Shown piece after piece: positions 7,482 to 18,763 of a DNA stretch of 24,000 nt. Positions within the stretch are counted from its first letter, which is position 1; the number at the start of each line of letters is the position of its first letter. Origin of the DNA: Cellvibrionaceae bacterium (GTDB lineage Bacteria > Pseudomonadota > Gammaproteobacteria > Pseudomonadales > Cellvibrionaceae); contig JAWSVE010000008.1 of NCBI GenBank assembly GCA_033852115.1, positions 6,933-30,932 of the forward strand, read 5' to 3'. Below the pieces are notes generated by a model. It was given only the letters and a program-made list of their open reading frames with translations, had not been told where the DNA came from and ran no database searches. A program made the translations under genes and the position numbers.

Positions 7482-8453
7482 ATGACTTCCGATGAAATTC
7501 TTCCAGGAGTAATTGGTCGCAGTGAGGCAGTGCAATCGCTGGCAAAAAAGCTTGAAAAAATTGCGACCGCAGATAGACCCATATTTTTAAATGGGCCGAC
7601 GGGTTCAGGTAAAGAGCTTTTCGCGCGCGCGATACATGAGCTTAGTGGTCGAAAAGGGCCTTTTGTGGCCGTTAATTGTGGTGCAATTCCTGAAACGCTT
7701 TTCGAGTCATTGCTGTTTGGTCATGAGCGCGGCGCATTTACAGGCGCCGATAAAGCGCAAGATGGTTTTTTAGCTGAGGCCGCCGGTGGAACCTTGTTTT
7801 TGGATGAAATTGCCGAACTGCCGCTACTTCAACAAACGAAACTACTGCGCGTGCTAGAAACCGGCTGCTATCAGCGGATTGGTGCACAAAAGGAGCAAAA
7901 ATACACCGGTAGAACATTGGTCGCAACGCATGCAGACTTGCGGCAAAGAATTGAGGAAAAAGCGTTTCGTGAAGACCTATTTTATAGAATCAATACATTT
8001 GAAGTATCAATTCCTCCTCTTGAGGCGAGGCGCGAAGATATACCACTTTTGGCGAGCGCATTCGCTCAATCAGTTCCGGGGATAACGTTGAGCGAATGCG
8101 CTTTGCGTTATCTTCAGCGGGCCAGTTGGCCGGGTAACGTGAGACAACTGAAAAGCACGGTCGATCGAATATGTATATTGGCAGATGACTCATATATTAC
8201 GGCAAGCGCTATAGAAGCGATGCAAGAATGCCAGTTCGACGAAAAGCCATTAGAAAACGTGGCTAAAACAGCAATAGCTTTAGCGACTGGAGATAAGATT
8301 CGTGCGATGGTTGATGCGCTTGTGAATGAGGCGTTGGCGACCTCAAAAGGGAATAAAACTAAGGCGGCAGAAATGTTAGGTGTTCATAGAAAAGTTATAG
8401 AGCGGCGTTGCCAGCGTCAGTCAGAAGTTAGCCCATCGTTAGAGTTGTCTTAA
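7482..8453 (+). CDS. Sigma-54-dependent transcriptional activator (bEBP), AAA+ core plus C-terminal Fis-type HTH, no N-terminal sensory domain
   Basis: Motifs present: Walker A GPTGSGKE, the sigma-54 contact loop ERGAFTGA, Walker B LFLDEI, the FREDLFYRIN block, and C-terminal KTKAAEMLGVHRKVIERR. The AAA+ core starts within ~10 residues of the Met (VIGRSEAVQSL), as in the PspF/HrpS-type activators. Confidence 0.9.
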   Translation: MTSDEILPGVIGRSEAVQSLAKKLEKIATADRPIFLNGPTGSGKELFARAIHELSGRKGPFVAVNCGAIPETLFESLLFGHERGAFTGADKAQDGFLAEAAGGTLFLDEIAELPLLQQTKLLRVLETGCYQRIGAQKEQKYTGRTLVATHADLRQRIEEKAFREDLFYRINTFEVSIPPLEARREDIPLLASAFAQSVPGITLSECALRYLQRASWPGNVRQLKSTVDRICILADDSYITASAIEAMQECQFDEKPLENVAKTAIALATGDKIRAMVDALVNEALATSKGNKTKAAEMLGVHRKVIERRCQRQSEVSPSLELS

Positions 8454-8462
8454 GGGGGCCAC

Positions 8463-8828
8463 ATGTTTAGCCGCTGGAAATCTATCAAAAATACTGAGTC
8501 GCAAACGAATCCCGACGATGAGCCAGCGGAGGAAAATCAAGAAAGCCGTGCAGTGGCTGAGCTGCAACGACAGCAGGATGTGCGAATGAAGGCGCTTGTG
8601 GATGACCTGATTGATAGACAAAACAAAGTGTTGGATCAGCTTCAGCGACGAGCATCAATGCAACAAACGACTTCGTCAGTGGGGGGAGTTGGATTGAAAG
8701 ACCAAGCTACAGTTTTTGCTGGGGTAGACGCCCAAAATCTAATACTAGAGCGAATGCAATTGGCTGAGAAAAATATAAGAGCCGTGCAAAATGAATGCAC
8801 TTCGAGCGGAGATAGCGAAGATGGTTAA
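8463..8828 (+). CDS. Hypothetical protein, predicted coiled-coil, acidic termini
   Basis: The ATG is 9 nt after the bEBP stop and is preceded by AAGGGGG. The sequence is Q/E/R-rich with heptad-like character (AVAELQRQQDVRMKALVDDLIDRQNKVLDQLQRR). Confidence 0.65.
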   Translation: MFSRWKSIKNTESQTNPDDEPAEENQESRAVAELQRQQDVRMKALVDDLIDRQNKVLDQLQRRASMQQTTSSVGGVGLKDQATVFAGVDAQNLILERMQLAEKNIRAVQNECTSSGDSEDG

Positions 8829-9102
8829 GGGGTGCAACGTATTTGAAGCAACTATCGATGAGGAGGGAGAGTATGTATGCTTAGGTGATCCCGTGAAGGT
8901 CCAGCAGGATGATATTGATGTACCTCAGCATGCTGAACAACTCCGCGATGATCGAGAGAGTGATAGATTGATGACTAATAGCCTTTTTATGGAAAACTAT
9001 TTGAGGAATGTGCGTGGAGAACAGCATGAACTACTTCGGCAATCACAAAAGGGCTTGTTAGATCTTCAAAAGGAAATACTAAGAAACATTCGCAGAACCT
9101 AG
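8821..9102 (+). CDS. Hypothetical protein
   Basis: The track ORF is 8791-9102. I prefer the in-frame ATG at 8821, which has GGAG 9 nt upstream and an 8-nt overlap with the previous gene. The start is uncertain. Confidence 0.6.
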   Translation: MVKGCNVFEATIDEEGEYVCLGDPVKVQQDDIDVPQHAEQLRDDRESDRLMTNSLFMENYLRNVRGEQHELLRQSQKGLLDLQKEILRNIRRT

Positions 9103-9149
9103 TACGTTTTGTCTAACATATCTGCTCTTTGCCGCACTGCACTGGAAAA

Positions 9150-9497
9150 ATGAACCTCAACGATCTAATTGAAAAAACAACGAAGCAACAAAAGCAAGAC
9201 CTAGCTATATTTCAAACATACTTCAATTCCTCTGGGCAGCTAAAGCAGGCGGCAAAACCTGGTGGAAATGAAGCTTTCGAGTTTATAAAGCAGGTTTTAG
9301 ATGCTTTTGAGAGTGGACAGAAAAGTCACCTTTCGCCGCCGGAAAATAAACAACTCAAAGCAATGTGGCAGATTCTTATTAACAATGAAAAATATACAGC
9401 CGCGCTTGCGAAGGTGATACTGCCCAAAGAGGGAGATCTAGATCAGAAGATAGCTGCGATTATGCATTTTATTGAAACGGAAGAAAGCAAGAGTTAG
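9150..9497 (+). CDS. Hypothetical protein
   Basis: The track start at 9129 is TTG. The first ATG (MNLNDLIEK) is at 9150. I recognise no motif. Confidence 0.6.
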   Translation: MNLNDLIEKTTKQQKQDLAIFQTYFNSSGQLKQAAKPGGNEAFEFIKQVLDAFESGQKSHLSPPENKQLKAMWQILINNEKYTAALAKVILPKEGDLDQKIAAIMHFIETEESKS

Positions 9498-9505
9498 AAA
9501 GTTAT

Positions 9506-18011: not shown

Positions 18012-18104
18012 TATTATCTCCTGAATACTTGTAACACATTAGTTTGAGATCTATTGGTCTGATATAAAAAATCTTCCAATTGAAATCGGCTTGAAATGTG
18101 TCAG

Positions 18105-18120
18105 AGCAAAAGCGATACCA
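18105..18120 (-). promoter_or_regulatory. Candidate sigma-54 promoter (minus strand) for the hydrolase operon
   Basis: The reverse complement reads TGGTATCGCTTTTGCT. It has GG-N10-GC spacing and a TTGCT -12 element, ~85 nt upstream of the ATG at 18011. Confidence 0.55.
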
Positions 18121-18409
18121 AGAAAAATAAAAAGTTAAAATTGTAGGTAGTTGAATGGAGCAGCGATTTAATTTGCCGTGGCGCAGGTGCTGTAGATGGC
18201 TGCCGGTAATTGGCTGATGTTTTAATTGGTTGTGCGATGATTGTATCTGGACGTAATCAACCACTTTCGTTTATAAAAGTTCCGTATTGCTCCATGTTAG
18301 CGGTTATGCTGCATTCATAAATTCGATGTTTACCTAAATGTAATTCAATGGCAGCCAAGAGACGAATGATTGTCTTTGCGTCATGAAGATCTGTTTCTGC
18401 GTCAATTCT

Positions 18410-18439
18410 GGACGATATCGTCCGCTGGAAGGCTATAAT
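18410..18439 (+). promoter_or_regulatory. Perfect 14-bp palindrome overlapping a putative sigma-70 promoter for 18503-18763
   Basis: GGACGATATCGTCC (18410-18423) is followed by a perfect TATAAT at 18434-18439. The -35-like TGGACG lies inside the palindrome, with a ~19-nt spacer. Confidence 0.4.
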
Positions 18440-18502
18440 CTTTTTGTTGAGGTATGTCGGCCAAAAGGCTTGGTTCATGTTGACTCTATAAAAGGTAAGA
18501 CC

Positions 18503-18763
18503 ATGGAAAATTCGGTGGATGTGTTTAATTCAATTGGTGCGAGCTTTGATTCCTCTGGAAAAGATAAATCGACGAATCCCAATAGGTGGGAATTTCGTTT
18601 TGATCAAGGGAAAAATGAAATTAGTCTCGATGTTACTTTAGTCGCTAAAGAGGTAGTGATTGTTGGTGAATGCGGATGCAACCTGAAATCGAGTTTGAAA
18701 AAGAGCGATGTATCTCAATTGATTCAATGGTTGTATAGAGTAAAAACGATACTCAATGATTGA
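18503..18763 (+). CDS. Hypothetical protein, paralogue of 12107-12409
   Basis: The internal ATG at 18503 of track ORF 18383-18763 is preceded by AAAGGTAAG. See 12107-12409 for the paralogy. Confidence 0.65.
   Translation: MENSVDVFNSIGASFDSSGKDKSTNPNRWEFRFDQGKNEISLDVTLVAKEVVIVGECGCNLKSSLKKSDVSQLIQWLYRVKTILND

Follow-up and report, generated by a model that had tools for sequence, protein, structure and literature searches.

We analysed a 24,000-nt stretch of DNA (hereafter the window) from contig JAWSVE010000008.1 of a Cellvibrionaceae bacterium, identified by exact look-up as Aurantivibrio plasticivorans NBRC 116494, in which a first-pass annotation had described an R-body (Reb) island under sigma-54 control. 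R-bodies are coiled protein ribbons whose sudden extension perforates membranes. The island begins with a gene for a sigma-54 activator at 7482 and ends with an AraC-family gene near 19500. Between these lie a series of small accessory genes, an array of tandem reb genes, and genes for a nitrilase-fold protein, an acetyltransferase and an alpha/beta hydrolase. Related loci were collected by a scan with RebB3 at one genome per species, which yielded 75 loci, and open reading frames (ORFs) were called in all of them. Iterated hidden Markov models (HMMs) were then built from every window protein, and the counts below are given over the reb loci or over 81 sources.

The array opens with three tandem genes on the forward strand, rebB1 (11001-11237; 78 amino acids (aa)), rebB2 (11284-11517; 77 aa) and rebB3 (11561-11794; 77 aa), which scored 80.1, 79.7 and 85.4 bits, respectively, against the Pfam RebB model. 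This model is PF11747, RebB or 'Killing trait' (gathering cut-off, 24 bits), the accession given in the first-pass annotation. The rebB1 frame is open from 10989, and its true start is the ATG at 11001 with GGAG in front, giving the 78-aa protein that we take as a candidate major R-body subunit. The core reported earlier for the tandem genes, AEAPAMAMGSLYQT...NAVYAQQQANV(T/S)YQAA(S/T)TLG, was observed in all three copies. Pairwise identity among RebB1-3 is 88-94% in protein and only 74-81% in DNA, which indicates old duplicates kept under purifying selection, with no recent amplification. Primary Reb proteins are recognised by NAV, QQQ, a conserved Tyr, KxxxD/E, a conserved Pro and few Cys or aromatic residues (Dorr 2026). 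These motifs appear in RebB1-3 as NAVYAQQQ, SLYQT, KVLAE and EAP, Cys and Trp are absent, and VDAVT stands where the QITD motif is expected. The 90%-identity cluster of RebB3 includes proteins of Gynuella, Planctobacterium, Rheinheimera, Alteromonas and Idiomarina. In RefSeq the Reb genes of the window are labelled 'RebB family R body protein' and the remaining cluster genes hypothetical.

Two divergent relatives, and thus five RebB-family genes in total, had also been claimed. One of the two, reb72 (15891-16109, minus strand), is a RebB-family protein by Pfam (45.1 bits; hhalign probability 99.8%) and brings the number of genes passing the model to four. The other, o70 (11853-12065, plus strand), falls below the cut-off when taken alone (E = 0.32, 11.5 bits). 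Its orthologues form a very well conserved family found in 30 loci, and 20 of 22 match RebB at E <= 10, the best at 3.6e-5. An iterated profile seeded with o70 converges on the Reb family, and hhalign aligns the two weakly, co-linearly and over the full length (P = 0.002). On these profile comparisons o70 is a divergent Reb-like protein at the family level only, and a candidate minor component. The window therefore holds three tandem and two divergent reb paralogues, and its relatives have 3-6 tandem copies. A stem-loop, TACGCCGGCA-TTTTGTG-TCGGCGTA, was observed between rebB3 and o70 (11803-11827), and a terminator-like hairpin directly follows rebB1 (11241-11259). These two hairpins could raise the ratio of major to minor subunits through attenuation or transcript stabilisation.

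The gene at 7482-8453 (plus strand) encodes a sigma-54 enhancer-binding protein (bEBP) of 323 aa, in keeping with the dedicated sigma-54 activator called earlier. Sigma54_activat (PF00158) matches with 206.6 bits over residues 10-175, AAA_lid_14 and HTH_8 match in addition, and the translation contains Walker A (GPTGSGKE), Walker B, a GAFTGA loop and a C-terminal Fis-type helix-turn-helix (HTH). The protein starts straight at its AAA+ domain and its alignment begins at position 1 of the PspF model, so that no N-terminal sensor or receiver domain is present and control must come from elsewhere, probably in trans. Homologues of the bEBP adjoin Reb arrays in 40 of the 81 sources, in several phyla (median ORF, 333 aa), and in minimal clusters the gene is often 30-300 nt from the array.

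Directly after the bEBP gene lies o121 (8463-8828, plus strand), which encodes a Q/E-rich and probably coiled-coil protein. It is the positional analogue of Q/E-rich proteins of 123-145 aa found behind the bEBP gene in the metagenomic contigs L001 and L002 and in 15 other loci, with weak similarity to the L001 family (hhalign P = 5e-4). A protein of this fast-evolving type (120-145 aa) follows the bEBP gene in every locus. No Pfam match was found for o121, and no sequence homology to PspA or HrpV. The PspF/PspA and HrpR/HrpS/HrpV systems likewise use sensor-less sigma-54 activators under control in trans; the window bEBP resembles PspF, and here too a small coiled-coil-like protein follows the activator gene, although it is unrelated in sequence to PspA and HrpV. 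By that analogy one may speculate that o121 is a partner of the bEBP, an anti-activator or a trans-acting modulator. A second potential regulator is encoded at the cluster edge (18824-19501, minus strand) and belongs to the AraC family (HTH_18, 67 bits). A tblastn alignment to the AraC protein of L001 covers residues 11-218 at 50% identity in a single frame, and an AraC-family homologue flanks the cluster in 30 loci.

Four sigma-54 promoter candidates of the -24/-12 type had been proposed, and the positions of all four are conserved in related loci. The candidate for the reb operon (10870-10885, plus strand; TGGCATGCTTGATGCT) lies about 115 nt before rebB1, with orthologous sites at L001 6708 (TGGCACAATTGATGCT) and L002 2487 (TGGCACGGTTGATGCT). 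Those for o169-o154 (13950-13965, minus strand; AGGCACCTAAGTTGCA) and for o406 and the GNAT acetyltransferase (13997-14012, plus strand; TGGCATTCAACTTGCT) each have one mismatch to the consensus and stand back to back between o169 and o406. The former is kept at L001 9901 and L002 7422, and the latter at L001 9936 and L002 7466, both of which are perfect consensus matches. The fourth (18105-18120, minus strand; TGGTATCGCTTTTGCT) is located 94 nt before the hydrolase gene, hyd473, and has counterparts ahead of the hydrolase genes at L009 5371 and L006 449. All four are intergenic and correctly oriented. Over the whole window, sigma-54-like matches are not above chance (18 found, 14.5 expected), and the significance of these four sites lies in their conserved position in related loci and not in the window count.

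For each Reb array, the 260 nt ahead of its first gene were also searched for sites matching at least 10 of the 11 consensus positions. Such sites were observed in 17 of 41 arrays in loci with a bEBP gene, against 0.18% of shuffled sequences, and in 1 of 26 arrays in loci without one. This sole case is Kangiella (L006), an island of the same type whose 10-kb flank yielded no bEBP gene. Matches to the sigma-54 pattern that fall within reb coding sequence, where TGGTAACTCTGTTGCT encodes GNSVA, were excluded as false positives. A different sigma-54-like motif, TGGTACA(G/A)CA(G/A)TTGCA, is conserved inside the gene behind the bEBP gene in other loci (L004 6356, L005 6313, L012 6036, L015 6351, L016 6335, L020 6387, L025 466 and L026 6440) and is not present in the window. 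It lies roughly 110-280 nt upstream of the o103 homologue (around 230 nt in most) and could be an internal sigma-54 promoter or mere coding conservation.

Upstream of the reb promoter we found a putative upstream activator site (UAS) at 10732-10780, made of two 16-bp palindromes (TGGAY-N6-RTCCA) with a spacing of about 32 bp. The double palindrome is located about 90-140 nt upstream of the -24 element and is conserved in an alignment of the window with L001, L002, L009 and L006 (alignment A1). The same palindrome was observed in L013 and before the Reb arrays of metagenome-assembled genomes (MAGs) of Ca. Kuenenia (L046) and a planctomycete (Planctomycetota, L051) (TGGACGGAATCGTCCA twice). Single palindromes number 7 in the window, with 2.0 expected, and three of them are at 10732, 18248 and 18409. 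The last two form a pair of UAS-like palindromes upstream of the hydrolase promoter (18248-18424; TGGACGTAATCAACCA at 18248 and TGGACGATATCGTCCG at 18409). When all loci are taken together, 38 sigma-54-like sites have a palindrome 60-330 nt upstream, compared with 14 in the downstream control. The pattern is typical of an enhancer-dependent regulon, in which the bEBP would bind the palindromes and transcription would depend on sigma-54. This gammaproteobacterium is expected to carry rpoN.

The partner genes of the island had been described as orphans. They are instead conserved families in a fixed order, found in about 25 gammaproteobacterial genomes with nearly the same gene order as the window. 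The shared order starts with the GNAT, the sigma-54 activator, the Q/E-rich protein, o103, o122, o91, in some cases a reb gene, o116 and o191, and continues with four Reb genes, o70, o100 and o110, then o154 and o169 on the opposite strand, and then the AraC-family gene. Contigs L001-L003, which carry close relatives of o406, repeat the entire gene order of the window, and Gynuella sunshinyii has the same core cluster with a RebB in the same 90%-identity cluster. Genomes with the full order include Rheinheimera, Gynuella, Alteromonas, Idiomarina, Planctobacterium, Shewanella, Exilibacterium, Saccharospirillaceae and Thiohalomonadales. The co-occurrence that was to be looked for by comparative genomics was thus found, with about 10 accessory families travelling with these reb genes, and the recurrence of the order in L001/L002, G. 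sunshinyii and the other genomes of this set marks the island as a genuine unit. A minimal form, composed of the sigma-54 activator, four to six Reb genes and the o91 family, was observed in Nannocystaceae/Enhygromyxa (Myxococcota), Desulfoluna, a Planctomycetota MAG and a Ca. Kuenenia MAG. Reb arrays with an o91/o110 partner also occur in Acidobacteriota.

Most of the accessory genes lie on either side of the tandem reb genes. Upstream, on the plus strand, are o103 (8791-9102; 26 loci), o122 (9129-9497; 27 loci), o91 (9506-9781), o116 (9805-10155; 28 loci) and, directly before the array, o191 (10152-10727; 27 loci), and in the iterated searches o103, o122 and o116 were always in the same position. 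Downstream are o100 (12107-12409, plus strand; 33 loci) and o110 (12421-12753, plus strand), followed on the minus strand by o154 (12860-13324; 23 loci) and o169 (13389-13898), the first gene of the minus-strand operon behind the 13950 promoter. Two further small genes are o87 (16271-16534, minus strand), observed in 5 loci and always adjoining reb72, and o126 (18503-18763, plus strand), whose product is probably 86 aa from the ATG at 18503, its orthologues having 84-87 aa. Several of these proteins are paralogues of one another. Comparison by hhalign paired o91 with o110 (E = 1.5e-40), o100 with o126 (E = 7e-43, over residues 43-126) and, more distantly, o154 with o169 (probability 89.7%, E = 1.8e-6). 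Gynuella carries o169 and o154 as parts of a single fusion protein of 296-335 aa (L004 11777-12667; L005 11819-12826), an argument for a functional connection between these two genes of the window.

No non-Reb partner is more widespread than the o91/o110 family, which is present in 52 of the 81 sources and in several phyla and corresponds to no Pfam family. We considered its members as Reb homologues and kept them as a separate family, since the hhalign matches were marginal (P = 0.003-0.004) and none of 32 members matched Pfam RebB. The C-terminal motif of o191, TLxNPNLAxIFxxxGF, looks GNAT-like. The reading of o191 as a degenerate GNAT nevertheless found no support, with no hhalign match to the GNAT family of the island and no PDB sequence match, and a homologue search with o191 returned the query alone. 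For o103, o122, o116, o191, o100/o126, o154/o169 and o87, no Pfam, NCBIfam or PHROG match was obtained wherever these were scanned, and most of these small families recur only in this cluster type.

Three genes of the island resemble enzymes. The first-pass calls of a lipase-like hydrolase and a GNAT were both sustained. The former, hyd473 (16590-18011, minus strand; 473 aa), is an alpha/beta hydrolase with 53 homologues; its nucleophile elbow GHSRG (Ser202), Asp230 and His313 are invariant in alignment A2, and it is a candidate lipase-type toxin. Its AlphaFold2 model has a predicted local distance difference test score (pLDDT) of 92.6. The best PDB match by Foldseek is Legionella lpg2422 (4m0m, E = 1.8e-7), followed by 4o5p (E = 2.5e-5), named in the PDB as an uncharacterised P. 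aeruginosa protein, which we take to be the lipase Tle1 of the P. aeruginosa type VI secretion system (T6SS); two papers name 4O5P and Tle1 together. Lower in the list is 6sjl_E, Tle1 bound to VgrG. Tle1/DUF2235 effectors and lpg2422 would share the alpha/beta-hydrolase fold modelled for hyd473 and its G-x-S-R-G elbow, and hyd473 is the smaller protein (473 aa against about 720-740 aa) and has no T6SS context. Neither hyd473 nor any of 45 homologues matched Pfam DUF2235, and the TM-scores are low, so that hyd473 appears not to be a member of the Tle1 family but is plausibly a lipase or esterase.

Homologues of hyd473 stand beside reb genes in 7 of 9 contexts examined, namely the window, Kangiella (L006), Cellvibrio (L009), Planctomycetota (L051), Arenicella (L081), Undibacterium (L082) and Curvibacter (L086). 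In Arenicella, Undibacterium and Curvibacter the surrounding cluster is of a different kind, the Group 1 type. In L082 (11467-12048) and L086 (8725-9951), genes for Glyco_hydro_108 lysozyme-like proteins were observed next to the hydrolase homologue, which hints at a programmed-lysis component in some R-body loci. A homologue of hyd473 in L083 (340-13281) is surrounded by six ORFs of 445-463 aa that lack a Pfam match and may be paralogues, and the available 13 kb contain no reb gene.

The second enzyme-like gene, o406 (14111-15331, plus strand), has five close relatives among 5.8 billion sequences and about 58 distant representatives. Its product is predicted to have a nitrilase-superfamily fold; the AlphaFold2 model has a pLDDT of 79.6, and the top three Foldseek matches in the PDB are all nitrilase-superfamily enzymes (probability 0.69-0.98, TM-scores 0.27-0.36). 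No Pfam CN_hydrolase match was found for o406. The distant homologues have the consensus motifs PEFYF and GLEICLEH. The third gene (15365-15886, plus strand) encodes a RimJ/RimL-like GNAT acetyltransferase of 173 aa (Acetyltransf_3, 62.5 bits), with weak NCBIfam matches to RimJ, RimL and RimI. A GNAT was observed in 19 loci, mostly as a 325-aa protein whose gene has a separate sigma-54 promoter that fits the consensus perfectly or nearly so. As RebB1-3, o70 and o91 all start with Met-Ser or Met-Ala, N-terminal acetylation of subunits by this enzyme is conceivable, although this is a guess.

The window cluster was compared with known R-body systems. The type 51 operon of Caedibacter taeniospiralis likewise has tandem small RebB paralogues and a divergent minor Reb (RebD, comparable to reb72 and o70). 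Recent work on that R-body identified RebD as a minor component and RebC as an assembly factor that stays out of the ribbon (bioRxiv 10.64898/2026.05.21.725848), which gives a precedent for both roles. The dependence of that operon on non-Reb help can be likened to the non-Reb genes of the window, where no RebC homologue was identified, though this was not tested directly. Caedibacter, an obligate endosymbiont, carries rebA, rebB, rebC and rebD on plasmid pKAP, whereas the window cluster has about 22 chromosomal genes in a free-living marine member of the Cellvibrionaceae, with the sigma-54 activator, GNAT, hydrolase and nitrilase-fold protein as extras, and its Reb proteins have 77-78 aa against 105 aa for ctRebB (Dorr 2026, Table S1).

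The P. aeruginosa PA14 cluster (rebP1P2, rebD, rapA, rcgA, fecI2; Group 2 of Raymann 2013, PMC3583457) is, like that of the window, chromosomal, with transcription machinery of its own and a non-Reb partner. In PA14, reb has dedicated regulators, is expressed stochastically and is tied to virulence, and its regulation involves FecI2, a sigma factor of the extracytoplasmic function (ECF) type, and RcgA (PMC8322103), whereas the window has a predicted sigma-54 bEBP. Pfam scans of the window ORFs found no ECF/sigma-70 family factor and no domain binding cyclic nucleotide monophosphates. The Group-2-like loci of the Pseudomonas, Burkholderia and Chromobacterium type (L062-L080) have only Reb genes in common with the window, with no shared accessory family and no upstream sigma-54 site of at least 10/11.

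Ties were also found to Raymann Group 1 (HP1.1-HP1.4). Profiles of o91/o110 match genes of 113-118 aa in the Group-1-type loci of Curvibacter (L086), Undibacterium (L082) and Arenicella (L081) at about 1e-16 to 1e-23. Through these loci, o91/o110 corresponds by size and position to HP1.2 of Raymann, and it is probably S3 of Dorr (seed, 113 aa); o70 resembles the 60-80 aa HP1.4/S1 in size and character. No window family matches the HP1.1-like gene of Curvibacter L086 (361 aa) or the HP1.3/S2-type genes of Group-1-type loci (about 170-180 aa, Reb-like), the Reb proteins of the window all having at most 78 aa. The identification of o406 with HP1.1 (about 360 aa) was rejected because the 58-homologue profile matched no gene in Group-1/2-like loci, and none of o103, o122, o116, o191, o100/o126, o154/o169 and o87 was found in Group-1-type loci. 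The Group-1-type loci of Curvibacter, Undibacterium and Arenicella have AAA+/AraC-HTH fusion regulators, unlike the bEBP of the window. Fusions of Sigma54_activat/AAA_lid with an AraC-type HTH, an unusual architecture, were observed at L081 6016-7536, L082 13761-15368, L086 11565-13067 and L001 14829-15932. Sigma-54 control of Group-1-type clusters was considered and dropped, as no -24/-12 site was found upstream of their reb arrays. By Reb sequence, the window cluster is close to group 6 of Dorr 2026, its Reb proteins being about 87% identical to those of the seed species Exilibacterium tricleocarpae (L029); this group is rare, with <1% of Reb sequences.

In the flanks of two reb clusters that are not related to each other, genes were observed for a giant Pkinase+AAA_16 protein and for an FHA protein, along with genes resembling those for ribosomally synthesised and post-translationally modified peptides (L001 1-2747 and 16016-17948; L086 13168-21518). 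The peptide-type genes are PatG_D/PatG_C in L001 and YcaO with RNP_Burkhold in L086. R-body loci and loci for peptide natural products may thus be recurrent neighbours.

The genes flanking the window island are of housekeeping and signalling types and include a biotin carboxylase/carboxyltransferase fusion, an enoyl-CoA hydratase, a pyrroloquinoline quinone (PQQ) dehydrogenase and a GGDEF protein. The G+C content is about 48-50% in the flanks and falls to about 40-47% within the island and its surroundings, a pattern compatible with horizontal acquisition. No Rfam element was found. Directly left of the island, in a stretch of 41-44% G+C, two minus-strand ORFs (5076-6032 and 6124-6639) have no Pfam match and no homologue in any of 80 reb loci. 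One appears secreted and the other has a membrane segment, and they may be separate cargo of the same insertion.

Taken together, we consider it likely that the stretch from 7482 to about 19500 is an R-body (Reb) gene cluster of a sigma-54-dependent type, one that regulates itself and has spread horizontally. The gene content, conservation, promoter and UAS architecture and folds are computed, and we infer every functional step that follows. The bEBP would be expressed as the first gene of a seven-gene operon (7482-10727) and, lacking a sensor, would be relieved or induced by a signal, probably acting in trans, with the o121 coiled-coil (compare PspA on PspF) and the flanking AraC-family regulator as candidates for this role. 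It would then bind the TGGAY-N6-RTCCA palindromes and open sigma-54 promoter complexes with ATP. This would turn on the reb operon, o169-o154, o406-GNAT and the hydrolase gene at the same time, possibly in only a subpopulation of cells. RebB1-3 would polymerise into a coiled ribbon. As minor components, o70, reb72 and the HP1.2-like o91 and o110 may nucleate or cap the polymer, the other small proteins may be non-incorporated assembly factors like RebC of Caedibacter, and the RimJ-like GNAT may acetylate subunit N-termini. When the bacterium is eaten, the ribbon would extend, the cell and the phagosome of the grazer would rupture, and the hydrolase would be released; this Tle1-like, co-regulated protein is the best candidate for a membrane-damaging cargo. 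Toxin delivery by the window cluster is likewise something we infer.

Several observations weigh against this reading. Neither Aurantivibrio nor any other carrier of this cluster type has been reported to form R-bodies, and the roles given to the small proteins and the GNAT are drawn from analogy only. The window reb promoter matches 9 of the 11 consensus positions, and no clear -12 GC was found upstream of the reb array, at the thresholds used, in Gynuella (by direct reading) or Shewanella. The right arm of the reb upstream site of the window is degenerate, which is why a window search for the full double palindrome with 3 mismatches returned nothing. The AraC frame is uninterrupted, with homology to its L001/L002 counterparts along the whole length, but up to about codon 124 it contains no ATG, GTG or TTG, and the gene either has a non-canonical start or is decaying. 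For hyd473 the Foldseek probabilities are 0.99-1.00 but the TM-scores are low, at 0.32-0.37. In o406 and its four closest homologues, two residues of the catalytic Glu-Lys-Cys triad of nitrilases are changed, the Glu being replaced by Asp (APDGYF) and the Cys by Asn (EINQEQ), so the window protein is, from its sequence, probably a pseudo-enzyme or of altered activity; the homologues adjoining the Planctomycetota and Kuenenia Reb arrays retain both residues. Both enzyme-like genes are also accessory and not core, with the hydrolase within 10 kb of reb genes in only 4 of the 81 sources and o406 present in only 6.

This scarcity bears on the rival that survives best, namely that the Reb polymer has another function, as a structural or storage inclusion or in lysis of a subpopulation, and that the hydrolase, nitrilase-like protein and GNAT are co-regulated neighbours. 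It is in line with this that distant homologues of the hydrolase (L083, L087) and of o406 (L084; P0089) are unlinked to reb genes, and that no R-body toxin has ever been identified (Raymann 2013, PMC3583457). We nonetheless judge this alternative unlikely, as the hydrolase has its own conserved sigma-54 promoter with UAS-like palindromes in three loci and recurs beside the reb genes of two cluster types in most contexts examined. Furthermore, R-bodies harm eukaryotic hosts in the three species studied (PMC8322103).

A second alternative holds that the bEBP gene is just a neighbour whose product controls a different set of genes, with reb being read from sigma-70 promoters, perhaps under the AraC-family protein, whose gene is as well conserved as the activator. 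The chance-level number of sigma-54-like matches in the window overall fits such a view, as does the finding that about half of the arrays in bEBP loci have no site of at least 9/11 in the region scanned. However, sigma-70-type sites in the island are below chance (10 sites, 23.8 expected), the -24/-12 sites occur at a fixed distance upstream of the first reb gene with a 100-fold enrichment over shuffles, and a conserved palindrome lies about 100-140 nt upstream of them from Planctomycetota to Gammaproteobacteria. Together with the recurrent placement of a bEBP gene beside Reb arrays across phyla, this makes simple adjacency very unlikely.

An origin as a prophage or phage-derived remnant, after the old idea that R-bodies come from defective phages, could draw on the low G+C of the island (about 40-45%) and on a match of RebB3 to one PHROG of unknown function (phrog_32040, E = 2.6e-14). 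It appears extremely improbable, since none of nine accessory proteins matched a PHROG, Pfam scans found no integrase, capsid, tail or terminase domain, a scan of the window for tRNA found none, no relatives were found among 2.9 million viral contigs, and no Reb was found in phages by Raymann 2013. We give almost no credence to the idea that 16590-18763 is a T6SS lipase effector and immunity module next to the reb genes by chance: the solved folds closest to the hydrolase do include Tle1 (4o5p, as we identify it, and 6sjl_E), but the TM-scores and the DUF2235 result argue otherwise, Pfam scans of the window found no VgrG, Hcp, PAAR or Tli domain, and the gene has a predicted sigma-54 promoter of the reb-regulon type and recurs inside reb clusters.

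The R-body locus is already known as a kind, and its Reb and HP1.2-like components have been catalogued. Neither Raymann 2013 (PMC3583457) nor Dorr 2026, which deliberately ignored non-Reb genes, describes a sigma-54 activator. In the literature searched, which left most subscription journals outside its scope, we found no paper linking sigma-54 or enhancer-binding proteins to R-bodies, no account of the fixed accessory set of this cluster type or of the minimal form in four phyla, and none of a lipase-like hydrolase as a recurrent, co-regulated companion of reb genes. Sigma-54 would be a third regulatory solution for reb, beside the AAA+/AraC fusions of Group 1 and the ECF factor of PA14.

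R-bodies are among the largest force-generating protein machines of bacteria and are being engineered as membrane-breaking pistons. The window cluster bears on three basic questions about them, namely their control in bacteria other than Pseudomonas and Azorhizobium, the non-Reb proteins that take part in their construction, and the toxin that they deliver. For control, it offers a compact sigma-54/bEBP circuit with a defined palindrome as candidate binding site, which should be easy to transplant because E. coli has sigma-54. For assembly, it offers about ten conserved accessory genes that form a constant set and include one (HP1.2/S3) in common with classical Group 1 clusters. For the toxin, it offers a testable candidate, a lipase-like hydrolase with an intact catalytic triad, which recurs beside reb genes in two cluster types and carries the promoter architecture seen before the reb array. 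A bolder proposal, which we think unlikely, is that the cluster is a portable, self-contained anti-grazer weapon passed by horizontal transfer from Planctomycetota/Myxococcota to marine Gammaproteobacteria and fired by the bEBP in a subpopulation of cells. If this were true, the Tle1-like hydrolase would be the toxin sought since the killer trait of Paramecium was described, freed on ribbon extension, and o103, o122, o116, o191, o100/o126 and o154/o169 would be new assembly machinery for a force-generating polymer. Since Myxococcota, Desulfobacterota and Planctomycetota, with an anammox MAG among them, also carry reb loci of this design, the ecological scope of R-bodies is widened.

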